Positions 1,071 to 58,618 of a stretch of DNA of 64,000 bases are shown piece by piece. The notes beneath the pieces are model-generated. The model was not told the DNA's origin, did not search any database, and worked only from the letters and a program-made list of their open reading frames with translations. The position numbers were made by a program, and so were the translations under genes. Origin of the DNA: Minisyncoccota bacterium (lineage in GTDB: Bacteria > Patescibacteriota > Minisyncoccia > Phycocordibacterales > GWA1-40-21); the NCBI GenBank assembly GCA_041656855.1, contig JBBACS010000003.1, forward strand, positions 4,902 through 68,901, given 5' to 3'. Every line of letters starts with the position of its first letter. The first letter of the stretch is position 1.

Positions 1071-1251
1071 ACCCGAGAAACTTTTTGCTAATAAAAATTA
1101 TTTGTTTTGACACAACATATAATACTATTACGTTGCTTACATCTAAAATCATGATTTTGTTTATTTATTAAATTTTTAATTTCATCGCGCTTATATGACG
1201 GTTGCGCGACGTGATTTCGCTAAATCAATGTTAGCAAAAACTTTAACGGGC
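1071..1251 (+). repeat. TIR-bounded intergenic element, copy A (181 bp)
   Basis: Ends ACCCGAGAAACTTTTTGCTAA (1071-1091) and TTAGCAAAAACTTTAACGGGC (1231-1251) are 17/21 inverted repeats. The same termini occur at 31006-31140 and 55127-55260. It abuts the comEC ATG (1068). Confidence 0.7.
1185..1230 (+). repeat. 46-nt repeat (copy 1), nested inside TIR element A
   Basis: tcgcgcttatatgacggttgcgcgacgtgatttcgctaaatcaatg is about 40/46 identical to the reverse complement of 3069-3116. A partial third copy lies at 63020-63044. Confidence 0.65.
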
Positions 1252-3071: not shown

Positions 3072-3116
3072 TGATTTTGCGAAATCACGTCGCGCAACCG
3101 TCCGATAAGCGCGACG
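3069..3116 (-). repeat. 46-nt repeat (copy 2), 5' leader of the cupin gene
   Basis: Reverse complement matches 1185-1230. It ends exactly at the cupin ATG. Confidence 0.65.
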
Positions 3117-3175
3117 CAATTTTTTAATTAATTGATAATATCTATATTATATCAAACCCATGATATAATACACGA

Positions 3176-4836: not shown

Positions 4837-4936
4837 ATTGTCCGCCCGAACATTTTTTATTCGACATTATTTTCTTATGAACAAAGTGAATTATAAAATA
4901 AGAAGTGCCCTTGTGGTAAAAAATGTTTTAGAGAAA
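4816..4936 (+). repeat. 3'-end module (copy 2) containing the stop codon of 4084..4836
   Basis: agacaatcaaattcaaaaTAGattgtccgcccgaacattttt (4816-4857), then a 62-nt insert, then aaaatgttttagagaaaa (4919-4936). Same order as copy 1. Confidence 0.7.
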
Positions 4937-7226: not shown

Positions 7227-7443
7227 TGGGTGGCTATCGGGGAGTTTCAGCTTACAGCCGCAGTACACCAAGAATCAGAGGGGGTTGGTCACAGCTTTTT
7301 TCTTCGCCGTCGCTCAGAAAAAGTTGCGAAGCTCTGCACTTGATTTTCTAATTCACTTCGTTCATAACAAAATCTACGCCCGACTCAGCTGATTTTTCTA
7401 CTGAAAAATCAGCTTCCATCTTTCAACCCTCGATAGCCATACC
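7227..7443 (-). ncRNA. tRNA-cognate minihelix-mimic element, His-type copy B (type II + TGTAA modules)
   Basis: On the minus strand, the 5' part tggctatcgagggttgaa is antisense to the tRNA-His 3' end (ttcaacccccgatagcca). The 3' end ctccccgatagccaccca is a verbatim sense copy. It also contains the 14-nt-loop hairpin and the GTAC/TGTAA hairpin. Confidence 0.65.
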
Positions 7444-12408: not shown

Positions 12409-12523
12409 TGGGATTCTGTCACAGCTCTTTTCTTCGCCGTCGCTCAGAAAAAGTTGCGACCCCGACTCAGCTGATTTTTCTACTGAAAAATCAGCTTCCG
12501 TCTTTCGAATCCCTTAGCACCCA
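12409..12523 (-). ncRNA. tRNA-cognate minihelix-mimic element, Val-type (type II, 3' end truncated)
   Basis: The minus strand begins gggtgctaagggattcgaa, which is antisense to the tRNA-Val 3' end. Then an 11-bp hairpin agctgattttt..aaaaatcagct and the hairpin ctttttc-TGAGCGACGGCGAA-gaaaag. It ends gaatccca. Confidence 0.6.
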
Positions 12524-18147: not shown

Positions 18148-21100
18148 TTAAACTACAAAATTCATATTTATAACTCCACTCTTTATATCTATAGCTTCTG
18201 TTTTGAATACTTCGGTATAAGTGCCATCATCTTTCTTCTTCTCTACTTTGATGGAATATTTTCCTTTAGGTACAAGAGCATAATAGTCTCCAAATTTGTC
18301 AGCGATTTTCTTTGTAAGCGGAGTATCTTCACCTTCTCTAAAGATTTTTACTATAGCAAAAGATAGAGGAATTTTAGTGTTCTTTTCTATAAGGGTACCT
18401 GATTTCTTTGATTTCAATACTACATAATTGAGTATGTAAGCAAGAAAGTAGAAACCAACTATTATATAGTTATAGGGTTCAGGTGTCACTATTACAGCAA
18501 TTACTGATATAAGTGCACCAATAATAAAAACAAATTTTGATATCTTTGCCCAAGTAATATCTTTTTGTTTAGTGAATTTATTTACATCCATCTTTGTTTT
18601 AGCAAATTCATTCCAATCGAATGATAGAGAGTCCATAGGGATATTCTTTGTAATCATTTCTCCTTCAGAAACTATAAGTTCTTCACCGAAATATAAATCA
18701 TTGTAAACTTCATCAAATGATTTACCTGCCATTTTCTTTGATGGTTGTATGTAGTTTGTTTTTGTAGCAACTATTTTGTATTTACCTGGTAGTACAAGGA
18801 ATCCATATCTTCCATCTATGTCTGTAATAGCTCCGGCTACTTCTTTGTTAGTCTCTGTGCTTACAAGAGATACATATACTGGATCAAGTGGTCTCTTTGT
18901 GACTGAATCATATACTGTACCCCATTGTCTTTGCTTTCTTCTGATACCTAGAGCTCCTGCAAGTAGTCCAAACATTCTTGTAGGAATGAGCCAGACTTCT
19001 GAAAATGATATTGGTGTAGCAAAAGCGACAGTTGATATTGAAGCAGCTACTCCAAAAACTAATGCTGTAGTAGTTACAACTTTTGCAGTAATAGATATTG
19101 TGGAATCATTAAATATATTTTTGATTTTTAGAATAGCTTCTTGTACAAGGAAAGATACTTGTCCATAGCTTTCTTTTATAGTATCTATTGCTCCAAGTAT
19201 AAGCTGTTGATCAAAAATATCATTAATATCAAATGATGGTTTTTCTGCTGTTGGTTTTGTTACTTCAGGTTTGGTATCAGGTTTTGTTTGAGTAACTTCT
19301 GGAATAGTTGTATTTGTATCTGGAGTAATTATTTCTGGGATTATTTGTTCAACTGTAGTTGTAGATATTTCTTCAGTAGTTGTTGCTACTTTTTCGGTTG
19401 TTGTAGCTTTGGTTTCGAAGATGGTGATACAATTATTATCTAATAGATTGTTGACATATTCTCTCGTTAGATTTCCAAAGTTTCCTGTACCTGTAGTAAG
19501 TCCTATTGGTGCTAAAATTTTATCAAAATTTGCTTCTTGTAATCTTTTTACAGCATTTGTTGTCTTAGTACCATAGAAATATGTTTCGTTTTCATATGAA
19601 CCTGGACCTGATGTGCTTACAGTAAAGTTGTTTTCATTAAGAAAGGTTTGAAGTTTCAAAACATCTAATGGATTGTTGTCCGCTGGTGCTGGAAATAGAT
19701 TTGAAGTAAAACAGAATCCTTCTTTTATACGAGATCCGGGTAATTTAGTATCGATATCTTTATCTTCTTCAACTATTATGATAGTGTCAGGAGTTGATGA
19801 TTTTGTAACTATTATTGTTGTCGTTGTTGAAATATTACCAAATATTAAACCAGTGATAGTTGTTGTACCTTCTCCTTGTGCATGAAATACTCCAGAGTCA
19901 TCTATTCTTCCAACAGATGAATCTGATGTGGACCAATATACTTTTGTATTTATTGAATTACCATATTGATCTAATATTTCTGCAGTAAATTGTTTTGTTG
20001 TGTCTAGATTAATAGAAGAATTTTCTGGAATAATTCTAAATGTTGTAAGGACTGAAGGTTCTTGAGTTTCTGTTATAACTCTTCTACTGCTTCTTCTTGA
20101 TGGAAATATCCAGTTTGTATTTCCTCCTCCGTCAACACAACCTACTAGACAATAGAAAGGTTCTGAGCTCAAGTTGTGGGAGCCAGAGATATTGAGGTAT
20201 GAGAACGAGGGAGTTTCAGAGCCAGTATATAATATATTTGTGTATGGTAAATTTGATGCTAAAGAAATCTTTTGAATTTTATTCTGACTTCCTCCATCTG
20301 CGACAAAAATATTTCCTGATGAATCAATATCTAGACCATAGGGACTACTGAATTCTCCATTGCCAGTTCCAGCATAACCAAAGGCATAGATTAAATTGAA
20401 ATAAGAATTATAAATTCGGAAACGATAACTACTAGGCTCGGCAACAATAATATTGTTATTACTATCTATACGTACAGTGGTAGGATATATGAGGCCATCT
20501 TTTTCACTACTTGGAGGTCCACCAATTTGAGAAACATAATTACCTGATGAATCGAATTTTTGGATTCTGTGATTTGCTGAGTCAGCAACATAAATGTTTC
20601 CAAAAGAATCTAGTGCAATGCCATTTGGTTGATTAAATTGTCCATTTCCATCACCCGCAGTTCCAAACTGAGAAAGATAGTTTCCGGAAGAATCAAATTT
20701 TTGAACACGATAATTATTTTGATCAACCACATAAATATTTCCTGTAGGATCAATTGCTACACCTCTTGGATAATTCAATTGTCCATCTCCACTTCCCGCA
20801 GTTCCTATAGTCTGGAGTAAATTACCAGATAAATCTGTTTTTAATATTCTATTACAGTGGTCAGATATAAAAAGATGACCTTGAAAATCTCCGGTTATAT
20901 TAAAAGGTCCACAAAAACCACCCATTCCACCAAAAGTGATGTTTTGATCAAAATAAGAAAGAACATTAAAATCATTATCAAATTTTATTACTCTACCACC
21001 AGATTCGACTTCATAAAAATTATCTTCTTCATCAACAAATATATTGTATGGTGATATAAAACCTCCCAAAGTACCATTTATATAAGATCCAATTGATGAA

Positions 21101-23550
21101 TAAAACGAATACCTTGATGGAATAAATTTATACATTTTATTGTTTGAAGAACCTGTCACAAATACATCACCTGAAGAATTTACAGAAACATGTGTTGGAC
21201 TTGTGAGCTGATTTGTACCATCAACGTCTCCACTGATTGTAGCAAAAACAGCTCCTTCTGAATTAAAAATTTGAATTCTATGATTATTGGTATCAGCTAC
21301 ATAAAGATAACCGGAGGAATCTAAATAAATACCTGTCGGACTATCAAATTGTCCCAATCCACTACCATAAGAACCAATTGAAGGCAAAAAATTTCCCGAG
21401 GAATCGAATTTTTGAATGCGATTATTCCCAGTATCAGATACATATATATTTCCCAAAGAATCTATTTTTATATCATTAGGCCCACTAAACTGTCCTTCTC
21501 CAGAACCACTTGAACCAAATTGAGAAACATAATTACCGGATGAATCAAATCTTTGAATTCTATTATTTCCTTGATCCACTACATACAAATTTCCCCCACT
21601 ATCAAAATCCATCCCCCTTGGATTATTAAACTCACCATTACCATTTCCAGGGGCTGGAGATGTTGATCCTATAGTCTGAAGTAGTGTACCATTCTGATCA
21701 AATTTTAATACACGACTACACTGGTCTGAGAAATAGATATTTCCAGATGTATCTCTTACTATATCAGACGGACCACAATGATTATTATAAGAAAATTCAG
21801 ATAAAAGATTCATATATTTATCCATAGTCTTAACACGTCCACCTTGTTCAATTGAATATATATTTTCAGATGAATCAATATCCATGCCAGCTATAGTCCA
21901 GAAAAAATCATTTACAGATCCGTCAATAAAATATAAATATGAATAATCAATTGAAGATCCAGAAGCTAAACCAATGGATAACAAATTATCAATACTTCCA
22001 TTTAAGGCTAATGTACCTGTTATTGTGGTTGTGTCTCCGGCAGGAGATAGTAATGACGATGTAGAGCTTGATTGTTTTGTAAGATTTTCAAATGTATTAT
22101 CACCAGAAATAGTTTGCGAAACGCCCACAAAATTTACTGTTCCACCGTTAGCAATAAATGTCCCTCCAATCTTTGACCAATTTCCATAGACATTGAGAGT
22201 GTAACCATTCAGGTCGAGAGTACCACCAAACAAAATTGTTAAATTATTGATACTCTCATCTTTAGTAAGTGTAACGGTGCCTACAGAAATATTTGCATTA
22301 CTGTTAATATCTGTACTACTTGTAGAAATAAAATTTATTGTTCCACCATTTTCTATAAGAGAACCGGAAATTATTGCAAAATTCCACCAACTAGATACAT
22401 TTAGCGTATATCCGGCCAAATCTAAAGATGCACCATTAAAAATTACCACTCTATCCGCACTTTGATCATGTGTAAGCGTTACAGTACCAGTACCTATATC
22501 GACTTCATCATTAATTCCAGGATAAGTTGAACCTTCTATCGGCACAGCAGGAATCTTGGAAGAATTATTTATGGCTGTTTTTGGCGTACCATCTGGATTA
22601 AAAACAACAACTCTATTATGAAACATGTCACTAGCATAAATATCCCCGGAAGTAGCAACATTTACATCAGCCATATAATCTATACTATCTATAAAATTAT
22701 ACTGTTCAATCAAAGTAAAATCTAAATTATACAATCCAACAGCACTATTACCGGGGCTCTGAACAAGACCGACGTATAATTGACCATTTGATGGAATTTT
22801 CAATCCCCAAAAACCATAACTAGATGGCGGTAAAAATTCTGACGATGAGGCTGTTCCATCTGGATTTAATATCCTCGCATAGTTATGAGGAGAAACTAAA
22901 TAAATTTCACCCGTTGTTGGAGAGATTGTTATACCAAACGGTTCTGATGCAGCTATAGTTGTAGAAGCATTACCTTCTAAATCCATAACCACAATTCTAT
23001 TGTTATTAGTATCTGTTATATAAATATATCCATTATGTATGGCAATATCTGATGGGTGATCTAATGCGAGTCCATCATAAAGAGTTGAGCTAGCAAAAGT
23101 ACTATAGAGAGTTCCGTCAGGATTGGCGATTGTAATATAACCACCAGATTGATTTACAATGTAAACTCTGTCAGATGTGGGATCAACTTCTGCTCCCATA
23201 GGCCCATTTAAACCTAGATTTGTTATCTGTGCGATTGGTACATTATTTGAATCAGCTATTATCAGGTAACTATTACCGCAAGAAGTAATGTACAAATTTC
23301 CAGTATTAGGAGAAATTGCTATATCTCTTGGTTGGTTAAGAATTATATTCGTACCAGTATTACCCCATGTTGTCGGACTATTCCAATCGCCTGAAGTATT
23401 TGTGGAAAAAGCCGTTGCAAAACTATTTATATTAAATATCTTTTTCCAATTTTCTTTAGGAACAGCAAAAGTAGCAGTAAGAACAATAACAAAAAGAACA
23501 AGGGTGGTGATAAATAAAGGGGATTTGATTGTGATATTAGACGAATTCAT
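18148..23550 (-). CDS. giant (~1800 aa) cell-surface protein: NHL-repeat beta-propellers, Ig-like (Big_2), PG-binding-like, TM segments and CarboxypepD_reg-like domains
   Basis: More than 15 NHL repeats (NNRIQKFDSSGNY.., GQFNQPNGIALDS..). Big_2-like FTAEILDQYGNSINTKVYWSTSDSSVGRIDDSGVFHAQGEGTTTITG. PG_binding-like LKLQTFLNEN...AVKRLQEANF. DIDGRYGFLVLPGKYKIVATK. N-terminal anchor. The track start is a GTG; ATG at 23550. Confidence 0.85.
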   Translation of the reverse strand: MNSSNITIKSPLFITTLVLFVIVLTATFAVPKENWKKIFNINSFATAFSTNTSGDWNSPTTWGNTGTNIILNQPRDIAISPNTGNLYITSCGNSYLIIADSNNVPIAQITNLGLNGPMGAEVDPTSDRVYIVNQSGGYITIANPDGTLYSTFASSTLYDGLALDHPSDIAIHNGYIYITDTNNNRIVVMDLEGNASTTIAASEPFGITISPTTGEIYLVSPHNYARILNPDGTASSSEFLPPSSYGFWGLKIPSNGQLYVGLVQSPGNSAVGLYNLDFTLIEQYNFIDSIDYMADVNVATSGDIYASDMFHNRVVVFNPDGTPKTAINNSSKIPAVPIEGSTYPGINDEVDIGTGTVTLTHDQSADRVVIFNGASLDLAGYTLNVSSWWNFAIISGSLIENGGTINFISTSSTDINSNANISVGTVTLTKDESINNLTILFGGTLDLNGYTLNVYGNWSKIGGTFIANGGTVNFVGVSQTISGDNTFENLTKQSSSTSSLLSPAGDTTTITGTLALNGSIDNLLSIGLASGSSIDYSYLYFIDGSVNDFFWTIAGMDIDSSENIYSIEQGGRVKTMDKYMNLLSEFSYNNHCGPSDIVRDTSGNIYFSDQCSRVLKFDQNGTLLQTIGSTSPAPGNGNGEFNNPRGMDFDSGGNLYVVDQGNNRIQRFDSSGNYVSQFGSSGSGEGQFSGPNDIKIDSLGNIYVSDTGNNRIQKFDSSGNFLPSIGSYGSGLGQFDSPTGIYLDSSGYLYVADTNNHRIQIFNSEGAVFATISGDVDGTNQLTSPTHVSVNSSGDVFVTGSSNNKMYKFIPSRYSFYSSIGSYINGTLGGFISPYNIFVDEEDNFYEVESGGRVIKFDNDFNVLSYFDQNITFGGMGGFCGPFNITGDFQGHLFISDHCNRILKTDLSGNLLQTIGTAGSGDGQLNYPRGVAIDPTGNIYVVDQNNYRVQKFDSSGNYLSQFGTAGDGNGQFNQPNGIALDSFGNIYVADSANHRIQKFDSSGNYVSQIGGPPSSEKDGLIYPTTVRIDSNNNIIVAEPSSYRFRIYNSYFNLIYAFGYAGTGNGEFSSPYGLDIDSSGNIFVADGGSQNKIQKISLASNLPYTNILYTGSETPSFSYLNISGSHNLSSEPFYCLVGCVDGGGNTNWIFPSRRSSRRVITETQEPSVLTTFRIIPENSSINLDTTKQFTAEILDQYGNSINTKVYWSTSDSSVGRIDDSGVFHAQGEGTTTITGLIFGNISTTTTIIVTKSSTPDTIIIVEEDKDIDTKLPGSRIKEGFCFTSNLFPAPADNNPLDVLKLQTFLNENNFTVSTSGPGSYENETYFYGTKTTNAVKRLQEANFDKILAPIGLTTGTGNFGNLTREYVNNLLDNNCITIFETKATTTEKVATTTEEISTTTVEQIIPEIITPDTNTTIPEVTQTKPDTKPEVTKPTAEKPSFDINDIFDQQLILGAIDTIKESYGQVSFLVQEAILKIKNIFNDSTISITAKVVTTTALVFGVAASISTVAFATPISFSEVWLIPTRMFGLLAGALGIRRKQRQWGTVYDSVTKRPLDPVYVSLVSTETNKEVAGAITDIDGRYGFLVLPGKYKIVATKTNYIQPSKKMAGKSFDEVYNDLYFGEELIVSEGEMITKNIPMDSLSFDWNEFAKTKMDVNKFTKQKDITWAKISKFVFIIGALISVIAVIVTPEPYNYIIVGFYFLAYILNYVVLKSKKSGTLIEKNTKIPLSFAIVKIFREGEDTPLTKKIADKFGDYYALVPKGKYSIKVEKKKDDGTYTEVFKTEAIDIKSGVINMNFVV

Positions 23551-23611
23551 TGTTAAATAATACACTAAAAAATATATTTGAAAATGATGTCTTTCGTGAT
23601 ATTATATTCTT

Positions 23612-27087: not shown

Positions 27088-27190
27088 TTTTATCCCTTGT
27101 ATCAATTCCACAAAATTTTCTACCCCAGTCAAATAAAAATTCAATTTGACGGGGCAAGCCTTCAAACAATTTTATACTATTTATTTTAAA

Positions 27191-28875: not shown

Positions 28876-28947
28876 CCTCTCATCGTTCAATGGATAGGAT
28901 AAACCCTTGCGAAGGGTTTGATGTTGGTTCGATTCCAACTGAGAGGA
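28876..28947 (+). tRNA. tRNA-Arg (GCG)
   Basis: cctctca acceptor, D-arm gttc-aatggata-ggat (with G-U pairs), anticodon arm aaccc-ttGCGaa-gggtt, T-arm gttgg-ttcgatt-ccaac, then tgagagg plus A. Confidence 0.8.
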
Positions 28948-28981: not shown

Positions 28982-29145
28982 GTCCTCTCAAGCAAGCAAA
29001 CTGCTTTGCTTGCGGGTTTGAATCGAACAGCGGAATGATATTTTTTCAGCAGAAAAATGAATGAGCTGGTGCCCAGACAAATCCGAGTGACGACGAGGAT
29101 TTAGTCGCGGGAGATAAATGTAATCATGTTCCAACTGAGAGGACA
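28982..29145 (+). ncRNA. tRNA-cognate minihelix-mimic element, Arg(GCG)-type (type II)
   Basis: gtcctctca, hairpin gcaagcaaa-ctgc-tttgcttgc, gggtttgaatcgaac, agcggaat, hairpin tttttc-agca-gaaaaa, gaatgagctggtgcccagac, hairpin aaatcc-GAGTGACGACGA-ggattt, agtcgcgggaga, then ttccaactgagaggaca (verbatim tRNA 3' end). Confidence 0.7.
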
Positions 29146-30756: not shown

Positions 30757-30990
30757 TTATTGTCTCACATAATATACAGTTGCTGGACCTCCATAATTAT
30801 TATTTACATAAACTCTGCGATAAGTAGGCTGTTGATTTACAACTTGAACCTTTGATGGTTTATACTCTGCGACAGCACTTATATTATTTCTTTTTGCCAT
30901 ATCTGCCTTAAAACCACTCCAAAACATAGAGATAAATGCAAATAATAACAAATAACCAAAAAATTTATCAAACTCTTCATTCCAGCCCAT
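30757..30990 (-). CDS. small membrane protein, hypothetical
   Basis: ATG at 30990 (MGWNEEFDKFFGYLLLFAFISMFW...). The track start 31026 is a TTG inside the TIR element. Terminator at 30722-30754. Confidence 0.5.
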   Translation of the reverse strand: MGWNEEFDKFFGYLLLFAFISMFWSGFKADMAKRNNISAVAEYKPSKVQVVNQQPTYRRVYVNNNYGGPATVYYVRQ

Positions 30991-31005
30991 TGTAATAATA
31001 TATTT

Positions 31006-31140
31006 ACCCGAGAAAATTTTTGCCAATAAAAATTGTTTGTTTCGACTTTGCCACTGTCAATGTTGTGTTGTTTTCGTCTATTATCATAATTTAGTGTATT
31101 TGATTAATTTTTAAAAACTTTGGCAAAAACTTTAACGGGT
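31006..31140 (+). repeat. TIR-bounded intergenic element, copy B (135 bp)
   Basis: ACCCGAGAAAATTTTTGCCAA (31006-31026) ... TTGGCAAAAACTTTAACGGGT (31120-31140). It fills the gap between the mutM stop and the ATG at 30990. Confidence 0.7.
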
Positions 31141-32075
31141 TAATTTAATTTTTGGTGAACGTCACAATAGTGTGCGCTTCTTCCACCAACTTTTATTCTT
31201 CTAATAATTCCCCCGTCATTCTTTTTACATTTTTCTCCTGTTCTTCTGTAAACTTTATGAATATTTTGATAACCGCCTTTTTTACCAAGCGGGTTCCTAT
31301 AGTCAGACATAGAATCTCCCCCGACTTTTATAGATTCATTGAGAACTTTTATAACATTTTTGAAAAGCAATTTCAATCTCATATCACTAATATCTTTTAC
31401 TTTTTGCATTGGATGAATATAAGACATCCACAAAACTTCATCTGAATAAATATTACCTATTCCAGAAATTATTTCTTGGTCCATGAGCACTGTTTTAATC
31501 TTTCCGTTTGGTTTTTTAAGCAATCTTTCTTTAAAAATTTTATATGTAAAAATCCTGCTCAGTGGTTCAGGTCCAAGCTTCTTAAGGTCAGGTATCTCGG
31601 ACATTTTGTCCGTGTCGTATACAAAAACTTTAGCAAATTTTCTTGTGTCCGAAAGTACTAAAGTGTTTTTATCTGACAAACTAAACGCAAGATGGATGAA
31701 ACGATTGTACGGATCGGAAAGCATACTACCAGCTGGGGGGAACCACTTTTTGTTTTCAAATTTATATTTTCCATATAAAAGATGCCCGGTCATTTTCATG
31801 TGAACTAGAATAGTTTTGCGTGCAACGAGGCCATCAGGCTTTTCGTTGTTTCCTGAAACATTGATTAACACATTTTTCGCTCTTCTTTCTACACCCAAAA
31901 TTTTTTTATTCAAAATTTGTTTCTTAAATAAAGGAAAATAATTCCTGTCCTTTATATTATTTTTACCTTTATGAAATGAGGAATCATAGTCAGTCCACAC
32001 GTCTAAAATAGTGAGTCCTTTAACTCGTCTGTTTAAGATATTTACTGTTGTTTGTACCTCTGGCAGTTCTGGCAT
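31140..32075 (-). CDS. mutM: formamidopyrimidine-DNA glycosylase (Fpg/MutM)
   Basis: MPELPEVQTT N-terminal catalytic Pro-Glu, MKMTGHL, an H2TH region, and a C-terminal zinc finger C..C...C..H-type (EKCKKNDGGIIRRIKVGGRSAHYCDVHQ). Confidence 0.9.
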   Translation of the reverse strand: MPELPEVQTTVNILNRRVKGLTILDVWTDYDSSFHKGKNNIKDRNYFPLFKKQILNKKILGVERRAKNVLINVSGNNEKPDGLVARKTILVHMKMTGHLLYGKYKFENKKWFPPAGSMLSDPYNRFIHLAFSLSDKNTLVLSDTRKFAKVFVYDTDKMSEIPDLKKLGPEPLSRIFTYKIFKERLLKKPNGKIKTVLMDQEIISGIGNIYSDEVLWMSYIHPMQKVKDISDMRLKLLFKNVIKVLNESIKVGGDSMSDYRNPLGKKGGYQNIHKVYRRTGEKCKKNDGGIIRRIKVGGRSAHYCDVHQKLN

Positions 32076-35988: not shown

Positions 35989-36150
35989 TGTGCGCTTAGT
36001 TGGACACGCTTCGCATTCTCCCTCGACTAAAGCTTCGTCGTCACTCAGCTTTGTCTGGGCACCAGCTCATTCGTCCCGCAAGCTTGCGGGACATTATTCC
36101 GCTGTTCGATTCCAACACACAAGCAAAGCAGTTTGCTTGTTTAAGCCACA
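35989..36150 (-). ncRNA. tRNA-cognate minihelix-mimic element, Lys-type (type II)
   Basis: On the minus strand: tgtggcttaa, hairpin caagcaaa-ctgc-tttgcttg, gttggaatcgaac, agcggaat, hairpin gtcccgca-agc-ttgcgggac, gaatgagctggtgcccagac, hairpin aaagc-TGAGTGACGACGAA-gcttt, agtcgagggaga, then tccaactaagcgcaca (verbatim tRNA-Lys 3' end). ORFs 35990..36178, 36000..36251 and 36153..36365 are spurious. Confidence 0.7.
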
Positions 36151-36169: not shown

Positions 36170-36242
36170 TGCGCTTAGTTGGAATCGAACCAACGACCGT
36201 CTCCTTAAAAGGGAGCTGCTCTACCGACTGAGCTATAAGCGC
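36170..36242 (-). tRNA. tRNA-Lys (UUU)
   Basis: gcgctta acceptor, D-arm gctc-agtcggta-gagc, anticodon loop ctTTTaa, T-arm gttgg-ttcgatt-ccaac. Confidence 0.9.
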
Positions 36243-47990: not shown

Positions 47991-48392
47991 CAAAACATTC
48001 TGAGCGAATAGTTTGGAACGGTTGCGAAAGAGATAATCTCGTAGTCCATTATTATCCCTATTTTACCTTTTTATCTTAAAATATAAAAATGTGATAATTT
48101 TGGGAAAGAAAGTAATAATGAATAACCAAATTAACCTTTCATTGTGAAGATTAGCTAGATCTTCTTAAAGAACAAATATATTGAAGTGTAAGGAGGATAA
48201 ATAAAGCGAGTTGCATCACTATATTTATCTAACACAACAAAATATAACCTAACAATATTATATGTCCTATAGAAATTATGTAAAGGACATCAACTGTTGA
48301 TAACTTGACAATGATATTTAATTCTAAAAGACATTAAAAATATGGCTAATAATAAAGATAGAATGGATATTTGACTAAGATTGAATTGGTGA

Positions 48393-49157
48393 TTATTTCA
48401 ATTCAAGCAAAATAGGGCAGTGGTCACTTCCAAAAATATTATCCAAAATTTCTGCCTTTTTAATTTTTTCTTTCAAATTTTCTGAAACAAAAAAGTAATC
48501 AATTCTCCAGCCAATATTTCTATCTCTTGCAAAAGTTTTCATGTCCCACCAACTGTATTGTATTTTTCCAGGATGCAAACTGCGAAATGTATCAATATAT
48601 CCATGAGAAATTACTTTATCTATCCATCCTCTTTCTATGGACAAGAAACCCGTATTTTTTTCATTTTCTTTTGGCCGAGAAAGGTCGATCTCCATATGAG
48701 CAGTGTTTACATCACCGCAAAAAACAACATCTTTGCCATTCTTTTTTAATTTATCAACAAATTTTAAAAATTCATCGTAATATTCCATCTTAAAATCAAG
48801 TCTTTCTTGTCCGCCACCGCCATTTGGAAAATAAACATTCAAAAGCACGAAGTCCTTATAATAAGCCACCAAAGTGCGTCCTTCATTATCAAATTTTAGT
48901 ATCCCAATGCCATATTCTACCTTTTCAGGCTTAACTTTTGAGAAAATAGCCACTCCGCTATAACCTTTCTTAAGTTTTGAGTGATCAAAATAAGAATGAT
49001 AACCGAGAGGGGAGCGGACTTCTTCAGGAAGTTGTTCAGGGTGAGCTTTTGTTTCTTGCAAACAAATAATATCAGGGTCAGCTTCAAAAATAGTACCAAA
49101 AGCACCTTTTTTATGAATAGCCCTTAATCCATTTACGTTCCAAGACAATATCCTCAT
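48393..49157 (-). CDS. xth: exodeoxyribonuclease III (AP endonuclease)
   Basis: MRILSWNVNGLRA, DIICLQETK, NVYFPNGG, GDVNTAH, WWDMK and GSDHCPI. Confidence 0.95.
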   Translation of the reverse strand: MRILSWNVNGLRAIHKKGAFGTIFEADPDIICLQETKAHPEQLPEEVRSPLGYHSYFDHSKLKKGYSGVAIFSKVKPEKVEYGIGILKFDNEGRTLVAYYKDFVLLNVYFPNGGGGQERLDFKMEYYDEFLKFVDKLKKNGKDVVFCGDVNTAHMEIDLSRPKENEKNTGFLSIERGWIDKVISHGYIDTFRSLHPGKIQYSWWDMKTFARDRNIGWRIDYFFVSENLKEKIKKAEILDNIFGSDHCPILLELK

Positions 49158-49309
49158 ATACGCAATTATATCATAATAGGGAATATGTTATAATATGTGT
49201 ATACTTGTCCCGTGCAAAATTCAATCTACACAAAAAACACACTATAAACGGGGAAGTATATTAAAAGTTTAGATAGTCGATTTTATCAATAATTAAATTT
49301 TTTTACGGG

Positions 49310-49660
49310 ATGAAAAAATTAATAACAATTTTGTCAGCATTTTTATTACCAGCTGTGTCTTTGGCACAAAATTATAGTTTTAGAATGATGAATGATGGAT
49401 TCAGTTCTGGCAATTCAATATTAAGTATATTTTTAATATTGTTAATTCCTTTGATATGGATTTGTTTTGTTGTTTTTGTTTTTGCATTTTGGATAGTAAT
49501 GCTTATAGATGCCATTAAAAATTCTCCGGAAAAAGAGAAGATTGTTTGGGTTCTTGTAATTATTTTTACACATATTATAGGTGCACTTGTGTATTATTTT
49601 GTAGAAAAAAGACCTAAAACAAAGGTCCATCATGCTGAACATAAGGAAGAAAATAAATAG
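49310..49660 (+). CDS. PLD-nuclease N-terminal (PLDc_N) domain membrane protein
   Basis: Signal-like N-terminus, then FWIVMLIDAIKNSPEKEKIVWVLVIIFTHIIGALVYYFVEKRP. Confidence 0.7.
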   Translation: MKKLITILSAFLLPAVSLAQNYSFRMMNDGFSSGNSILSIFLILLIPLIWICFVVFVFAFWIVMLIDAIKNSPEKEKIVWVLVIIFTHIIGALVYYFVEKRPKTKVHHAEHKEENK

Positions 49661-49682
49661 TTAGAAATCAACAACTAATTTT

Positions 49683-49874
49683 ATGGTTGCAAGAACTTGG
49701 AACTATATAAAAAGAAATCATTTAGAAATTTCGCTTTCGCTGTTGTGTTTATTTCTATTATTATGGAATCTGGATAGATATTTTCATATCTGTCCATACG
49801 GAGTAATACCAGGAATAATTGCAGTAATTTTTGAAATATATATTCACATAGAACATAAATTAAAGCATAAATAA
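49683..49874 (+). CDS. possible small membrane protein
   Basis: 63-aa ORF, 23 nt after the previous gene and followed by hairpin 49877-49904. An overlapping minus-strand ORF (49681..49890) is an equally weak alternative. Confidence 0.3.
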   Translation: MVARTWNYIKRNHLEISLSLLCLFLLLWNLDRYFHICPYGVIPGIIAVIFEIYIHIEHKLKHK

Positions 49875-49902
49875 TTAAAAATGGAGTCATCTGACTCCAT
49901 TT

Positions 49903-50856
49903 TTAGTTCTTGTTTTTGTTATGAAAATTCTTGTGGATATCTCGTAAATGTTTATCCGTAACATGAGTATATATCTGGGTTGTAGCTATACTTGAATGGC
50001 CTAACATGGCTTGAACACTACGTATATCAGCACCATTTGAAAGCAAATCCGTTGCAAAACAGTGACGAATAACGTGTGGTGTAACTTTTTTGGAAATTCC
50101 TGACATTATTGCATATCTTTTTACTATTCTTTCTATTGACCTGCGAGTGAGTCCTTCATCTTTTGTTTTGTCTTCTTTACCTTTAAGTAAACTTTTTGGA
50201 ATACCCTCATCACTAACTTTTACAAAAAGTGCATCCGACATATCTTTTCTTAAAGCCAAATATGTTTTTATTGCATCCTTAGCTTCCTGCGAAAGAAAAA
50301 CCACGCGAACTTTTCCCCCTTTTCCTCGAATGGAAAATTCATCTTGTTTGATATCCAAATCATTTGTTAGAGAGCAAAGTTCAGAAACACGAAGACCGGT
50401 AGAAAACAAGAGTTCCAAAATAGCGTGTCCACGAGCCACTTTTTCAGGATTTTCCTCCAGATCTGGGGCTTTTAAAAGCCTGTTCAATTCATCTTGTGAA
50501 ATGACATCAATTGATCTTTCACCAACTTTTGCAAGTTCTATTTCATCTGCATGCAGGGAAGTAATGCCACGCTTTGTAAGAAATTTTAAAAAACTTCGCA
50601 GTGCAATCAAATAATAATTTTGTGTTTTCTTTTTCATCGTGTCTTGAGTCGCACGATTATTGCCAGCGACTTGACGATTGAGCCAAATGCGAAAATCCCT
50701 GACTTTTTCATAAGTAATATCTTTTGGGTCAGTAATTTTTGTTTGCTCCAAAAAAACAGTTAAATAGTGATTATAGTTTTCTACAGTACGAAGAGCACGA
50801 CCTCTTTCTATTTCCATATATTCAAGAAATTGTCTTTTTAGATCTTGCAAATTCAT
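49903..50856 (-). CDS. xerC: tyrosine recombinase XerC/XerD family
   Basis: ERGRALRTVENY, GLRVSELCSL, VTPHVIRHCFATDLLSNGADIRSVQAMLGHSSIATTQIYTHV (R..HxxR..Y). Confidence 0.9.
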   Translation of the reverse strand: MNLQDLKRQFLEYMEIERGRALRTVENYNHYLTVFLEQTKITDPKDITYEKVRDFRIWLNRQVAGNNRATQDTMKKKTQNYYLIALRSFLKFLTKRGITSLHADEIELAKVGERSIDVISQDELNRLLKAPDLEENPEKVARGHAILELLFSTGLRVSELCSLTNDLDIKQDEFSIRGKGGKVRVVFLSQEAKDAIKTYLALRKDMSDALFVKVSDEGIPKSLLKGKEDKTKDEGLTRRSIERIVKRYAIMSGISKKVTPHVIRHCFATDLLSNGADIRSVQAMLGHSSIATTQIYTHVTDKHLRDIHKNFHNKNKN

Positions 50857-51009
50857 ATCTATATTTTAGCATGTCGCCAAATATTTTGCTAAAATAAGCT
50901 ATTTTAAGCCATATTTAACAATATAAAGGTAATTGACATATGGTTAATATAATGCTATAATTGAAAGAGATAAACAAATCGCCTATATTTATAGGCACAA
51001 GGAGGAAAT

Positions 51010-51306
51010 ATGAAAAAAATATTTTTTCTAGCGCTCATTGTAGTAGCATTTAGCAATATGGCTTTCGCAGGCGAGATATCTGCATCAAAGGATCTGAGCT
51101 TCAAACCCACAGAAATTTTCTGCCCAATGGTTTTAAATGAAAAACTGACAAAAGGGTGGGTAGATGAACATTTATTTCAGGCAGACAGTATAAAAATAGA
51201 GCCTCCTGAAATGATCTACGAAGTGATTCTCAATGTTTATAATATGGCAAAAAATGCAAATTCAGAAAAAAATGTGCCGAAAATAGTTTGGTACATTTTG
51301 TTTTAA
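51010..51306 (+). CDS. small secreted protein, hypothetical (strong SD)
   Basis: 98 aa. Signal MKKIFFLALIVVAFSNMAFA. SD cAAGGAGGaaatATG. Terminator at 51308-51350. Confidence 0.6.
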   Translation: MKKIFFLALIVVAFSNMAFAGEISASKDLSFKPTEIFCPMVLNEKLTKGWVDEHLFQADSIKIEPPEMIYEVILNVYNMAKNANSEKNVPKIVWYILF

Positions 51307-51409
51307 TAACGGGCGGGATTGTTTAAATACAATCTCGCCTGTTTTGTTTTTATACAATAATATTCAGTATTTATTTGCATTTTCACAATAAATATGCTAA
51401 TTTATACAC

Positions 51410-51673
51410 ATGTTAACAAAGACGAAAAAAGCAAAAGTAATAAAGGAAGTTGCAACACATGGCACAGATACTGGTTCTCCAGAGGTTCAAATTGCTATAC
51501 TTTCAAAAAGAATTGAGGAATTAACTAAACATTTAAAGAAAAATGCTAAAGATAATCACTCAAGAAGAGGATTACTCGGAATGGTTGCTGATAGAAGAAA
51601 ACACCTAAAATACTTACAAAAAACTTCACCAAAAAGATACGAAGCTATAATGAAGAAGGTAGAACTTAAATAA
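51410..51673 (+). CDS. rpsO: 30S ribosomal protein S15
   Basis: GTDTGSPEVQIAILSKRIEELTKHLKKNAKDNHSRRGLLGMVADRRKHLKYL. Confidence 0.95.
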   Translation: MLTKTKKAKVIKEVATHGTDTGSPEVQIAILSKRIEELTKHLKKNAKDNHSRRGLLGMVADRRKHLKYLQKTSPKRYEAIMKKVELK

Positions 51674-51719
51674 ACAAAAAATCCCCTTTAGGGGATTTTT
51701 TGTTTATTTAAGTTCTACC
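51658..51719 (+). terminator. 62-nt perfect hairpin (29-bp stem) overlapping the last 5 codons and stop of rpsO
   Basis: ggtagaacttaaataaacaaaaaatcccc-ttta-ggggattttttgtttatttaagttctacc. Confidence 0.85.
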
Positions 51720-51893
51720 CCGTAGGCAAACCACTATTCTCAACATAATACTATCTAAACCTACAAGACCTATGACTTTAAATAACAACAAAACTCTATA
51801 TATTTGGTTTGTTGTACTGGGGGAGAATTCAATTCATGATATAATTCACTTAGGTCGATGATTAACAATATTTAAATAATTTTTATACACAAA

Positions 51894-52418
51894 ATGAGCG
51901 TAATTAAACATAAAGGACAGAGAGTAGGAATTTTTATAGATACACAAAATATTTATCACTCCGCAAAAAATTTGTATGGAGCAAAAGTAAATTTTGGACA
52001 AGTAGTAAAAGATGCACTTGATGGAAGAGTTTTAATAAGAGCAACAGCATACGTTATCACAACAGAATCAGGAGATGAGAAAAATTTCTTTGAAGCATTA
52101 AGTAAAGTGGGTATAACAACCAAAACGAAGAACTTGCAGATTTTTGCAGGTGGCTCAAAAAAAGGGGATTGGGATGTAGCTATGGCCATTGATGCAATTT
52201 CACTTTCACCCAAGCTAGATGCGGTTATTTTGGTAACAGGAGATGGAGATTTCATACCATTAGTTGAATATTTGAAAATAACCCAAGGATGTCAGGTAGA
52301 ATTGGTCTCATTTGGTAAATCAACATCAGGAAAACTAGTAGAAACTGTGGATGATTTTATGGATTTGGACAAAGAACCATATAAATACCTTATTAGGCAA
52401 GGAAATAGAAGGCAATAA
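51894..52418 (+). CDS. NYN-domain (LabA/DUF88-like) putative ribonuclease
   Basis: RVGIFIDTQNIYHSAKN, KGDWDVAMAIDA and VILVTGDGDFIPLVEYL. Confidence 0.8.
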   Translation: MSVIKHKGQRVGIFIDTQNIYHSAKNLYGAKVNFGQVVKDALDGRVLIRATAYVITTESGDEKNFFEALSKVGITTKTKNLQIFAGGSKKGDWDVAMAIDAISLSPKLDAVILVTGDGDFIPLVEYLKITQGCQVELVSFGKSTSGKLVETVDDFMDLDKEPYKYLIRQGNRRQ

Positions 52419-55126: not shown

Positions 55127-55260
55127 ACCCGTTAAAGTTTTTGCCAATGTTATTGAAAATGAATATTTATGATATCATTCTAATTACAGAAAAAACCATT
55201 TTACTAAATGTTATTAAATGGACACAATAACATTTTCTTTGGCAAAAATTTTTCTCGGGT
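55127..55260 (-). repeat. TIR-bounded intergenic element, copy C (134 bp, inverted relative to A and B)
   Basis: ACCCGTTAAAGTTTTTGCCAA (55127-55147) ... TTGGCAAAAATTTTTCTCGGGT (55239-55260). It lies between the pnp terminator and the ATG at 55285. Confidence 0.7.
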
Positions 55261-55284: not shown

Positions 55285-56382
55285 ATGGACGAAGAACTTC
55301 CACCATTAGTACAAACGAATAATGTTGATCCAAAAATGAAAGCAGATGTTGTGAACCAACTAGATTCTTTTATTAATCCCGCAGCTAAACCAAAAACTAA
55401 CAATATCAATGCTGCATCATATTACTCAGGAGCTGGAAAAGAAGAACCATTAATAAAAATAACAAATATGCCAGCACAGGATACAGCTATTCCACAAAAA
55501 CAAAATAGACCTATAGTGAGAACATATAAAAGTGATGTTGAAGAAACTATCCAAACAAGCCACATATCTTCTATCAATATTGCAATGGCAGAAAATAGAA
55601 AAATGCTAGGCCAAGCAAAACAAACAGAAATAGAAACAAAAAAATCTGGACTAAATAAAAATATCTTAATCATAAGTCTAATATTAATTGTTGGAGGAGG
55701 TTTAACATTCCTAGTGCCACAATTTCTACTCCAGATGAAATATGGAGAAAAAAAGGTTCCAGTGGAAACAGTAGATTCTAAACCAATAATGACTGTTGAT
55801 ATAAGTGAGAAAATCAATCTTAAAGACATAGATTTAAGTAGAGTAAGCACTACCTTAAAAGAAAGAGTGCTCCAGTCAAAAACTAATCTCGGACAAATAA
55901 AAAACATATTTTTCACAGAAGGAGATGGGGTAGACGAAAAGTTAATCACGGCAAGTACTTTTTTGACATTAATAAAGTCAAATATACCATCAGAGATACA
56001 AAGAACACTTAAAGATCCTTACATGTTTGGTTTGCACAATTATAATGGCAATCAAAAATTTCTTATACTAAAAGTCGGCTCATATGATACAACATTCTCA
56101 GGAATGCTATATTGGGAAACAAACTTATGGCAAGATTTTAAAGAATTATTTGACTTAAAATCAGAAAACTCTACGCCAGAAAATTCATTTGCAATAGAAA
56201 TCAGAAAATTCCAGGATGCCACATTTGATAATAAAGACTGCAGAGTGATTAAAGATTCTGGAGGTAATATAATATTTTTGTATTCAATAATAGACGAAAA
56301 TACCATAGTCATTACAACAAGCACAGATACTCTGAAAGAAATCATAAACAGAGTAAGTAAAGCTAGAGTAGTTACTCAATAA
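55285..56382 (+). CDS. hypothetical membrane-anchored protein
   Basis: 365 aa. Low-complexity N-terminus, one TM (ILIISLILIVGGGLTFLV) and a C-terminal globular part. Confidence 0.6.
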   Translation: MDEELPPLVQTNNVDPKMKADVVNQLDSFINPAAKPKTNNINAASYYSGAGKEEPLIKITNMPAQDTAIPQKQNRPIVRTYKSDVEETIQTSHISSINIAMAENRKMLGQAKQTEIETKKSGLNKNILIISLILIVGGGLTFLVPQFLLQMKYGEKKVPVETVDSKPIMTVDISEKINLKDIDLSRVSTTLKERVLQSKTNLGQIKNIFFTEGDGVDEKLITASTFLTLIKSNIPSEIQRTLKDPYMFGLHNYNGNQKFLILKVGSYDTTFSGMLYWETNLWQDFKELFDLKSENSTPENSFAIEIRKFQDATFDNKDCRVIKDSGGNIIFLYSIIDENTIVITTSTDTLKEIINRVSKARVVTQ

Positions 56383-56846: not shown

Positions 56847-57049
56847 AACTTCTAAATCTGGTGCATTTCTTCGTCATTTAGATTTTTTCTTTCCTGCGCA
56901 GTAGATTTACTACAGCTTAGTCAATAAAAAATCTAATTCCTCGAACTGCATCCATATTAAAAAGTTTTCAAAAATAAAAAATGGTTTCCGCTTTGCGGAA
57001 ATCATTTTTTATTTTGTTTTTATTTTTTTACATGTATAATGTTTCTTGA

Positions 57050-58618
57050 ATGAGCTTTGCAAAAACTTCCAGTGCACAGACTATCGGTCTTGGTGCAAAA
57101 ATAATTGATGTTGAAATAGATCTTTCAAAAGGTCTGCACTCTTTCACTATAGTCGGGCTTCCAGACAAAGGGGTGGAAGAATCTCGCGACAGAGTATCAG
57201 CTTCAATTAAAAATAGCGGTTTTACATCTCCTAAAAGTTTAAATCAAAAAGTTGTTGTCTCTCTTGCTCCTGCTGATATAAAGAAAGAAGGTCCTGCTTT
57301 TGATGTAGCAATTTCTCTTGCATATTTACTCGCTAGTGGTGAAATAGAATTTGATGCAAAGAAAATACTTTTTCTAGGTGAACTTTCTCTTGATGGAAAC
57401 TTAAGAAAAATAAACGGCGTGCTTCCCATAGTTGCTGAAGCAAAAGATCGTGGCTTTGAACAAGTTTTCTTACCAAAAGATAACGCGAAAGAAGCTGCGC
57501 TCGTTTCAGATATAAAAATATATGGAGCAAATACATTAAAAGAAATTATTGAGCATTTGAATACGAAACAAATAAATAAAAAGTCAGGGACTGCTATAGT
57601 ACAAACAAAAAAGATAGAACAGCAATCACAAACAGAAATAATAGTGGAGGATGATGAATTACTTATAGATTTTAGTGAAATAAAAGGACAGGAAACCGCA
57701 AAAAGAGGTTTAGAAATTGCAGCTGCAGGTGGACACAATATCGCTATGTATGGACCTCCAGGAACTGGTAAAACGATGCTGGCGAAGGCCTTTTCACATA
57801 TTCTACCTTCACTATCATTTGATGAGATACTAGAAATTACTTCAATTCACTCTGTTGCAGGAGTATTAAAAAAAGATATTATTACAAAATCACCAGTTCG
57901 AGCTCCTCATCACACAGCTTCATATGTTTCTATTGTTGGTGGAGGAACAATTCCAAAACCCGGAGAAATAACTCTCGCACACCGTGGAGTATTATTCTTA
58001 GATGAATTTCCAGAGTTTGATAGAAAAGTAATTGAAACACTTCGTGAACCACTTGAAGAAAGTGAGATAAGTATTTCTCGTTCTCGTGGAACAGTAACTT
58101 TTCCGGCAAACTTTATACTTATTGCAGCTATGAATCCATGTCCATGCGGAAATTTCGGTTCAAAAACAAAAGAATGTATTTGCAAACCAACAGATTTGCT
58201 CAGGTATCAAAGAAAAATCTCAGGACCTATCATAGATAGAATAGACATGTGGGTTGAGGTCTCACAAATCAATTATGAAAAGCTTGGGGAGAAAGAATCT
58301 GATAAAAAAGAAACTACAGAAATAAAAAATAGAGTAATAAAAGCTAGAGAAATACAAAAAGAAAGATTTACCGAAGCCAAAAGGAAAATAAAGACAAATA
58401 GTGAGATGGAAGCTAAAGATATTAATAAAATCGCTCTGCTTGAAGATAGTGCAAAAGAAATATTAAATACTTCAGCCAAAAAATTGGATTTATCAGCACG
58501 TGCTTATCATAGAATAATAAAACTTGGCAGAACTATTGCAGATTTAGATGGAAGCAAAACAATTAAATCTTCTCACATACTTGAAGCGTTGCAATATAGA
58601 CCGAAGAGAAATATATAG
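57050..58618 (+). CDS. comM: YifB/ComM-family Mg-chelatase-like AAA+ ATPase
   Basis: IVGLPDKGVEESRDRV, MYGPPGTGKTMLA, GVLFLDEFPEF, LIAAMNPCPCG and DRIDM. Confidence 0.9.
   Translation: MSFAKTSSAQTIGLGAKIIDVEIDLSKGLHSFTIVGLPDKGVEESRDRVSASIKNSGFTSPKSLNQKVVVSLAPADIKKEGPAFDVAISLAYLLASGEIEFDAKKILFLGELSLDGNLRKINGVLPIVAEAKDRGFEQVFLPKDNAKEAALVSDIKIYGANTLKEIIEHLNTKQINKKSGTAIVQTKKIEQQSQTEIIVEDDELLIDFSEIKGQETAKRGLEIAAAGGHNIAMYGPPGTGKTMLAKAFSHILPSLSFDEILEITSIHSVAGVLKKDIITKSPVRAPHHTASYVSIVGGGTIPKPGEITLAHRGVLFLDEFPEFDRKVIETLREPLEESEISISRSRGTVTFPANFILIAAMNPCPCGNFGSKTKECICKPTDLLRYQRKISGPIIDRIDMWVEVSQINYEKLGEKESDKKETTEIKNRVIKAREIQKERFTEAKRKIKTNSEMEAKDINKIALLEDSAKEILNTSAKKLDLSARAYHRIIKLGRTIADLDGSKTIKSSHILEALQYRPKRNI

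Follow-up and report, generated by a model that had tools for sequence, protein, structure and literature searches.

The question raised by this locus is whether a short repeat that always sits with the same end against a start codon is a mobile insertion or a regulatory leader of the gene that follows it. The locus (positions 31007-31139) lies within a stretch of 64,000 nucleotides of contig JBBACS010000003.1, from a Minisyncoccota bacterium, which we refer to as the window. A first-pass annotation had described three copies of an element bounded by inverted repeats, and had offered two readings: an element resembling a MITE (miniature inverted-repeat transposable element), or a modular 5' leader whose terminal arms pair into a stem. 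We consider it likely that the element belongs to a lineage-specific, MITE-like family of the Paceibacteria (Patescibacteria, or candidate phyla radiation, CPR), derived from and probably mobilised by a minimal GIY-YIG element, and retained only where expression of the neighbouring gene is restored.

The window, which has a G+C content of 32-33% and whose pnp and mutM products are 100% identical to proteins of a 'Candidatus Paceibacterota' metagenome-assembled genome, was scanned with the 20-nt arm consensus TTGGCAAAAAYTTTNNCGGG, allowing at most three mismatches. Exactly six matches were found against 0.32 expected (shuffle mean), and none of 100 shuffles reached six. The six matches form three inward-facing pairs, each with the same end beside a start codon, at the positions previously noted; profile hidden Markov models of both element halves found no further or decayed copies in the 64 kb. 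The copies and their surroundings are as follows.

1072-1091 (-), 1231-1250 (+), 31007-31026 (-), 31120-31139 (+), 55128-55147 (-) and 55239-55258 (+): the six arm matches of the TTGGCAAAAAYTTTNNCGGG scan
1072-1250, minus strand: copy A, 179 nt, B subfamily; near arm at 1072-1091, far arm at 1231-1250
1161-1230, no strand assigned: foreign repeat of 70 nt that forms a GC-rich hairpin, inserted in copy A between the X box and the AAAAATT box
31007-31139, minus strand: copy B, the focal copy, 133 nt, 'B' subfamily; reads 5'-CCCGTTAAAG...TTTTCTCGGG-3' on the minus strand
31120-31139, minus strand: far arm of copy B, 'AAC' type, CCCGTTAAAGTTTTTGCCAA, directly 3' of the mutM stop codon TAA (31140-31142)
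31007-31026, minus strand: near arm of copy B, 'CTC' type, TTGGCAAAAATTTTCTCGGG, followed by TAA (31004-31006), 13 nt and an ATG (30988-30990)
30757-30990, minus strand: gene 3' of copy B, encoding a predicted membrane protein of 77 aa with no Pfam match
55128-55259, plus strand: copy C, 132 nt, 'C' subfamily; far arm at 55128-55147, near arm at 55239-55259 with one extra T
55285-56382, plus strand: gene 3' of copy C, encoding 365 aa with no Pfam match

In all three copies the CTC arm is followed by TAA, and the downstream ATG is reached at 3 nt (comEC, which has Pfam matches to Competence and DUF4131), 16 nt (the 77-aa protein) and 25-26 nt (the 365-aa protein). The AAC arm abuts the mutM stop in copy B; in copies A and C the upstream gene has a terminator hairpin, and the arm lies 3' of it. 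Both placements, of one end against a start codon and of the other at an upstream stop or terminator, are as the first-pass annotation had described them. Its claim that the interiors are largely unrelated does not hold for copies A and B, which belong to one subfamily and have a common 27-codon open reading frame (ORF); copy C is of another subfamily. The arms of copy A carry the mutually compensating variants TTAGC/GCTAA, and copy A is longer because the separate 70-nt hairpin repeat is nested inside it. A second copy of that repeat (inverted, 83% identical) is found at 3069-3138, within the 5' leader of a minus-strand gene starting at 3071. The repeat forms a hairpin CGTCGCGC...GCGCGACG and, in copy A, is inserted at the X/Z junction, the hairpin position of other versions of the element.

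We searched the downstream proteins against all collected loci (designated below by L numbers) to find orthologous sites, and for many orthologous genes the element is present in one genome and absent from a close relative. At a comM-like Mg-chelatase gene the empty site is in the window itself:

57008-57052, plus strand: empty site before the comM-like Mg-chelatase gene, reading TGTATAAT, then GTTTCTTGA, then ATG

This site is filled in L077, L054, L097, L138, L140 and L117, where it reads TGTATAAT-GTTTTCTTCA-(CCCG...CGGGTAA)-ATG with an insert of 134 or 158 nt, and the native TGTATAAT is retained just outside the far arm. A pilB-like gene carries a 293-nt insert with a GIY-YIG gene in L085 and none in L169 or L099, although the proteins are 95% identical. 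Between L150 (filled) and L184 (empty) the proteins are 99% identical, and between L146 (filled) and L168 (empty) the right flanks are 98% identical. The site of copy B is empty in L190 (mutM 82% identical): 16 nt separate the TAA of mutM from the ATG of the same small membrane protein there. Before ruvA, L192 has a copy and the window has none. Copy C has orthologues 3' of pnp in L054, L077, L097 and L138, and in L117 the same site holds a decayed remnant consisting only of the far-arm CGCTAAA and the interior promoter. No copies were found in 22 kb each of the more distant relatives L118 and L119 (pnp 74-79% identical). In L160, two copies lie 1.3 kb apart before different genes with interiors 94-96% identical, and in general the interiors form subfamilies that recur across loci and species. 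Because close relatives differ in whether an orthologous site carries the element, we take it to be a mobile insertion and not a conserved leader.

These comparisons bear directly on the alternative that the arms are a cis-regulatory operator pair or leader, either binding a looping regulator across ~113 bp of promoter DNA or closing a riboswitch-like RNA, with the downstream genes as a regulon. Such a system would account for arms that are nearly invariant, for a fairly constant length (126-140 nt), for the fixed position relative to the start codon and for a stem that folds well on the sense strand (z = -4.4 for copy B and -5.7 for copy C against shuffles). It is nevertheless largely refuted by orthologous genes that have or lack the element in close relatives. 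The downstream genes also have no common theme (comEC, recO, holA, ddl, rsmI, rsmE, ruvA, trmD-like, pilB/pilC-like and membrane protein genes), interiors vary among transposed subfamilies, the nuclease gene can replace the interior altogether, and no known RNA family matches: at the gathering score Rfam gave only tRNAs over the window, and over copy B it gave no match with E < 1. We regard the alternative as highly improbable. What survives of the earlier 5'-leader reading is that pairing of the arms finds support in compensatory changes, and that the element becomes the region just upstream of the gene.

The insertions extend well beyond the window. When species-representative genomes were scanned with the arm motif, many loci proved to have a pair of inverted matches 106-119 nt apart, all of them in Patescibacteria metagenome-assembled genomes (MAGs; Paceibacterota, Taylorbacteria, 'Patescibacteria group' and unclassified bins), and a scan of metagenomes with the near arm added 67 loci. 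With the arm-pairing pipeline, 109 two-armed copies were found. Of these, 94 are unique, and they come from metagenomes and from more than 11 species-level MAGs of Patescibacteria. All but one of the 109 have one AAC arm (CCCGTTAAAG...) and one CTC arm (...TTTTCTCGGG). When copies are oriented from AAC to CTC, the downstream ATG falls exactly at GGG-TAA-ATG in 55 of the 94 and within 30 nt in ~80 of the 94 (for the metagenome loci the 'TAAA' after GGG was imposed by the search pattern, and the next 'TG' was not). Thus the conserved ends and the positional bias toward start codons, first seen in three copies, hold far beyond them. On the far side, most copies (63 of the 94) lack a divergent ORF within 120 nt of the arm. 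Unique copies of 126-140 nt number 75 and code for at most a 14-27-codon ORF; in carrier loci chosen without the motif (the window, L117 and L190-L192), copy density is ~1 per 17 kb. Arm sequences are nearly invariant across species, with variants that are species-specific, such as CTAGGG in all but two copies seen from one MAG (others CTTGGG, CTTGGA).

Single matches to the arm motif in Flavobacterium, Magnetococcales and others had no inverted partner arm at the loci listed, and are likely to be chance matches or unrelated repeats. The Magnetococcales MAG JACSDG01 (L007, L018, L030, L031, L056, L063, L073, L090, L094, L098, L105 and L114) has its own multi-copy repeat with TTGGCAAAAATTTTTGCGGG; its first 15 nt are the same as the arm, it shows no paired architecture, and the copies are in direct orientation in the five loci with more than one. 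At L004 (2518-2786), two elements of the present family stand back to back with a common GGGTTAACCC junction, and copies can therefore insert beside or into one another.

As for what is inserted and where, the best parse takes the element as CCCG...CGGG-TAA(A), with the bases to its left derived from the target. The left flank is ATTCA in 30 of the 94 copies and NTTNA in most; the homologous bases at empty sites are TTGA, ATTCC, TTAA and TAG. Since TTCA precedes none of 62 ordinary start codons, this bias suggests a target preference. TA, TNA and TTAA were each tried as a target duplication, and none was consistent across seven filled/empty pairs.

A possible source of the family is found in elements of 293-294 nt that have the same arms and an intact ORF of 89 codons. 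The ATG of this ORF is 8 nt after the far-arm X box, and its last eight codons (...FISKNFLG) and stop are the near arm and its TAA, such that the next gene starts at TAA-ATG. The product matches the Pfam GIY-YIG domain (PF01541, E = 4e-14) over residues 2-71. GIY-YIG is the only Pfam family matched at the curated cut-off in both P0001 and P0071, with T5orf172 passing for P0071 and not for P0001; no HUH (Y1) transposase or RAYT protein was found, the element ORF matching only PF01541 and, weakly, T5orf172. Its only NCBIfam match, 'group I intron endonuclease', is well below the cut-off, and the nearest solved structures are the UPF0213 proteins BH0048 (PDB 1ZG2, E = 5e-4) and EF2693 (PDB 1YWL, E = 0.06). 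More than 160 homologs, 54-100% identical, came from a database search, and the motif residues YVY...LYTG...R...HN...YYE...NRE are conserved in 120 of the homologs. Most have 89 aa and a C-terminus of ...SNFFISKNFLG or ...KNFNG, the translations of the two arm types; 84-aa forms, also flanked by arms, end in ...SNFFNR.

The nuclease cassette fits exactly between an upstream stop and a downstream ATG, as between ftsK and a small gene (L115), ybeY and ftsA (L116), and nusB-NUDIX and rnc (L120). At L116 (2975-3277), ybeY reads into the far arm and stops at the TAA within CTAAAG, and the 3' end of this upstream gene has thus been reshaped by the insertion. The cassette at L120 (9975-10270) has swapped arm types, with the GAAAAAA type 5' and the AAC type 3'; its protein ends in ...KNFNG, as do several other listed homologs, and is followed by the TAA-ATG of the RNase III gene.

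A nuclease gene placed between two inverted repeat copies, with doublets dispersed between genes, recalls RAYT genes and their REPINs. The arms might then be palindromes that the host keeps for structural or regulatory ends (as transcript-end, RNase III or insulator sites) and that a domesticated nuclease has dispersed, in a host-owned system like REP/REPIN-RAYT. The strong conservation of the nuclease in its >160 homologs would fit, as would the cassette immediately upstream of the RNase III gene; the species-specific arm variants suggest co-evolution with a trans factor or gene conversion. RAYTs, however, are single-copy and vertically inherited, whereas here the position of the nuclease gene is polymorphic and the gene can be frameshifted. 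GIY-YIG is not an HUH enzyme, the elements are upstream of genes in fixed orientation and not mainly between convergent genes, and the family is absent from the related species L118 and L119. On balance we find this explanation improbable, if less so than a regulatory leader.

Between the nuclease version and the short copies there is a series of lengths: 293, ~204-205, ~176, ~158 and ~134 nt. The forms of ~158, 176 and 204 nt have lost the coding region but retain the AAAAAAGTT box (Z box) and the hairpin around the start codon of the nuclease. Because the intermediates keep these GIY-specific pieces, we read the lengths as a deletion series ending in the copies of 126-140 nt. The short interiors themselves are not decayed nuclease genes, as tblastn finds in them only the arm tail of 11-16 residues.

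The opposite direction must also be weighed, namely that the short elements are primary and serve as a landing pad for a GIY-YIG homing gene. The nuclease would cut a short element, which would be repaired from a GIY-bearing copy via arm homology; the arms would thus be recombination handles and not transposon ends. One site before a pilC-like gene shows what such an event might leave: it is occupied by a GIY version of 293 nt in L085 and by an element of 136 nt in L099, with flanks 90-93% identical, and the X box has changed together with the interior. The GIY-YIG domain is a classical homing-endonuclease fold, to which the sub-cut-off match to 'group I intron endonuclease' adds, the hairpin over the start codon resembles the usual tight control of homing genes, and homing would leave no target-site duplication. 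But homing leaves unexplained how short elements spread to new loci, and the intermediate forms, with their start-codon hairpin and KKV-codon box, fit derivation of short from long. The protein, moreover, lacks the DNA-binding domain of known homing enzymes, and arms of 20-45 nt are short for homologous repair. We consider homing unlikely, while giving it more weight than the REPIN-like system. A MITE-like origin, in which the short copies descend from the GIY-YIG element, remains our preferred reading. The insertion reading of the first-pass annotation is borne out by the polymorphism, by the common subfamilies and by a longer relative with the same termini; it lacks a target duplication and a known transposase family.

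The ends that any such machinery would meet are ~25-nt imperfect terminal inverted repeats with sub-terminal boxes, kept complementary by compensatory substitutions. In an alignment of 59 sequences, the terminal stem comprises 19 paired columns and a conserved 2x2 mismatch, with 97% of cells paired. The variants of the X box (GCCAA/TTGGC, GCTAA/TTAGC as in copy A, GCTGA/TCAGC, ACTAA/TTAGT and ACCTA/TAGGT) are almost always complementary within a copy. The Y box is the 7 nt after the far X box, and its reverse complement is found 7-8 nt before the near X box; it occurs as GTTTGTT, GTTATTG (copy C), GTGTTGA, GTTTATT, GCTTATT and GTTTTTG, and pairs with a mean of 0.61 mismatches, compared with 1.96 when near arms are swapped between subtypes. 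For the X+Y structure, 92.7% of cells in the 59-sequence alignment are paired and 10 pairs have changed on both sides, the Y helix having done so in six of seven pairs. The covariation score is 0.107 versus 0.060 in shuffles, of which none of 500 reached 0.107, and the structure scores above all slid controls. In copy C the Y box lengthens the predicted stem:

55148-55155, plus strand: Y box of copy C, TGTTATTG, which pairs with CAATAACA at 55225-55232 and extends the stem past a 6-nt bulge (minimum-free-energy fold)

For the short copies, an alternative Z:Z' helix shows fewer compensatory cells than Y:Y'; the box order, X-Y-Z...Y'-Z'-X', does not let the two helices form together. Within the coding sequence of the nuclease, pairing joins the KKV codons (AAAAAAGTTAC) to the SNFF codons (GTAACTTTTTT), with the compensated variants GTTGC/GCAAC, ATTAC/GTAAT and GTTAG/CTAAC, and the hairpin over the start codon has passed from CAATAT/ATATTG to CAGTAT/ATACTG by synonymous substitutions. 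Compensatory changes within a coding sequence are a clean natural example of overlapping constraints from protein and nucleic-acid structure.

How can a gene tolerate such an insertion directly before its start codon? Among ordinary genes of the related genomes, many have TGnTATAAT 6-10 nt before the ATG and others have GGAGG; in the window, this extended -10 is seen at that distance at 57008-57052, as it is at gene starts of L117-L119. The spacing implies that the mRNAs of such genes are leaderless, as judged from the motif. The near arm has no GGAGG, and the element separates the gene either from its native promoter, which is short and often of the leaderless type, or from the upstream stop. 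An insertion between a leaderless promoter and its ATG would abolish leaderless translation.

The interior of many copies contains a candidate replacement promoter. An extended -10 is present on the sense strand in 43 of the 75 short copies, versus 10 antisense, with a peak 54-57 nt before the near end. In copy C it is found at:

55170-55178, plus strand: extended -10-like TGATATCAT in copy C, directed at the downstream gene

The same promoter core persists in the arm-less remnant of L117 (TGTGATATTAT). The X box, which is palindromic, offers another candidate, as it reads TTGCCA inward and TTGGCA outward. In copy B, TTGGCA is followed after 18 nt by TATATT and, 6 nt later, by the ATG, a plausible outward hybrid promoter of the leaderless kind; TTGGCA-17 nt-AATAAT in copy C is a weaker candidate. 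The earlier suggestion of a -35-like TTGCCA in the far arm is possible for the A/B subfamily only, and for most other copies the interior extended -10 is more convincing. These motifs make it likely that the element supplies a promoter.

A second possible route to expression is translational. An ATG-initiated ORF ends in frame at the TAA in 44 of 79 copies, against 4 and 15 for the other two frames. The D-type mini-ORF has 14-18 codons and starts ~10 nt after the -10; those of copies A and B are as follows.

31004-31087, minus strand: mini-ORF of copy B, 27 codons, MIIDENNTTLTVAKSKQTIFIGKNFLG and stop; ATG at 31085-31087, its stop being the TAA after the near arm
1069-1152, minus strand: mini-ORF of copy A, MILDVSNVIVLYVVSKQIIFISKKFLG and stop; its TAA (1069-1071) abuts the comEC ATG (1066-1068)

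The B-type frame is open in all of ~19 copies, while stops interrupt the other frames in 19-23 of 24. The B-type mini-ORF shows no bias by codon position, and what is conserved is only that its frame stays open; this indicates that the frame matters and the peptide does not. We hypothesise that the host gene may be translationally coupled to the ORF of the element.

Taken together, the family could have arisen and persisted in the following way. The copies of 126-140 nt would be non-autonomous derivatives whose movement depends on machinery supplied in trans by the GIY-YIG version. This machinery would recognise the hairpin or cruciform formed by the arms and leave no target duplication. Insertions would survive only where the element restores expression of a gene that it has severed from its promoter. 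It may do so by a promoter directed at the gene, whether the interior extended -10 or the -35-like TTGCCA/TTGGCA in the arm. Many copies would in addition supply a short ORF, either the GIY-YIG gene or its remnant of 14-27 codons, ending at a TAA that touches the host ATG, and the host gene could then be translated by termination-reinitiation. In transcripts that start further upstream, the paired arms may sequester the region before the ATG.

Several observations weigh against this account and need to be set beside it. As regards movement, no consistent direct repeat of 2 bp or more was found in the seven filled/empty pairs, the element boundaries are uncertain by 1-4 nt, and tblastn finds no GIY-YIG gene in the 64-kb window. 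The nuclease is of 84-89 aa in total with no separate DNA-binding domain, we know of no GIY-YIG nucleases that act as transposases, and a role for this one in movement is a hypothesis based on guilt by association. As regards expression, the strong -10 is absent from subfamily B, including the focal copy, an in-frame start codon is absent from 35 of the 79 copies, and the presence of a mini-ORF is not significantly associated with adjacency to the ATG (odds ratio 1.76, P = 0.27). The wobble counts at variable positions (19 GT/TG and 37 AC/CA, with one fixed G·T that fits the sense strand) do not separate pairing in RNA from pairing in DNA, single-stranded or cruciform. Finally, the copies are related by descent, and counts made over copies overstate the number of independent events.

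A more specific version of this account is that the 89-aa GIY-YIG protein is the mobilising enzyme of an unrecognised class of prokaryotic element with built-in translational coupling. We hold this to be possible but doubtful. A structure-specific nuclease would recognise the long end-to-end stem and place the element just before start codons; the obligatory TAA-ATG coupling, and a stem that locks the region before the ATG of essential, formerly leaderless genes, would then make the element hard to lose.

The genomes of CPR/Patescibacteria are very small and densely packed, and mobile DNA is usually said to be scarce in them. Each copy of the present family is placed at the control point of a housekeeping gene, such as comEC, ruvA, recO, holA, ddl, a comM-like gene or pilB/C-like genes. 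In our view, a selfish element has here probably rewired promoters and translation starts clade-wide, and the chemistry of its transposition or homing may be new, a possibility open to test. In practical terms, the repeat will be a source of error in carrier MAGs for the prediction of gene starts, the inference of promoters and assembly, and its conserved 20-nt arms are a ready clade marker.

The window has other features that are independent of the family. Two pairs of intergenic repeats are 84-98% identical (28987-29114 with 36017-36145, and 7288-7424 with 12418-12506), the first of them beside tRNA genes (28876-28947 and 36170-36242), and the genome seems to hold several small repeat families. 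Terminator-like hairpins of common sequence recur after different genes, at 872-905, 27115-27157 and 62050-62092 and at 1930-1980 and 4810-4860 (ACCCCGTCAAAT...ATTTGACGGGGT and GTTCGGGCGGACAATCTAC...). An ORF of 1805 aa at 18148-23565 encodes a large repeat protein, with 141-nt tandem units in five copies that are 61-100% identical. The cumulative GC skew has its minimum at ~48000-52000, where most genes change over from the minus to the plus strand, which suggests a replication origin there. Because all three copies of the element point away from this region, the direction of genes and that of replication are inseparable for them.

We found no account of this family in the literature, and none that names a GIY-YIG parent for the MITEs of bacteria, which is weak evidence since most subscription journals lie outside the coverage; a 2024 review of prokaryotic MITEs mentions neither GIY-YIG nor Patescibacteria (PMC10969869). 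Of the MITE features, small size, common terminal inverted repeats and multi-copy insertion polymorphism are present in this family and target duplication is absent; a longer version with the same ends exists, but it encodes a GIY-YIG nuclease and not a recognised class of transposase. The Correia/NEMIS elements of Neisseria and other promoter-bearing MITEs are 100-200 bp long, with terminal inverted repeats of ~25 nt and many copies mostly upstream of genes; the sigma-70-like promoters of Correia elements can drive the neighbouring gene, and the transcribed stem is cut by RNase III in Neisseria (PMC10969869). Our family resembles them in size, inverted repeats, bias to positions upstream of genes, predicted promoters and the long stem that the paired repeats would form. 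Correia elements, however, duplicate a TA target, insert in either orientation and have no known protein-coding parent (PMC10969869), whereas the present family shows no duplication, has an essentially fixed orientation (108 of 109), abuts the ATG in 55 of 94 copies and includes a version coding for GIY-YIG.

With IS200/IS605 and their PATE derivatives, and with REPIN-RAYT systems, the family has in common a very small enzyme gene, structured ends, non-autonomous hairpin derivatives, the absence of target duplication, and pairing that is kept by covariation and not by sequence identity. The conserved left flank (ATTCA or TTNA in most copies) would be expected if insertion took place 3' of a short target. 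Those systems, in contrast, use HUH (Y1) enzymes and a sub-terminal hairpin at each end, while here the enzyme is GIY-YIG and one stem joins both ends. Free-standing GIY-YIG homing genes, such as the seg genes of phage T4 and the I-TevI class, encode proteins of 200-270 aa with a DNA-binding domain; to our knowledge, they lack terminal inverted repeats and are not accompanied by a family of miniature derivatives. The nuclease version is like them in its catalytic domain, in being wedged between host genes without disruption and in leaving no target duplication, and unlike them in its 84-89 aa, which comprise the catalytic domain only, its terminal inverted repeats and its miniature derivatives. 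The UPF0213/COG2827 proteins have the same single-domain size and are the closest solved relatives by sequence, albeit at low identity. The depositors of 1ZG2 and 1YWL name them only 'hypothetical UPF0213 protein', and we know of no link between UPF0213 proteins and repeats or mobility. As far as the literature covered shows, this would be the first family of miniature elements with a coding relative that carries only a GIY-YIG nuclease.

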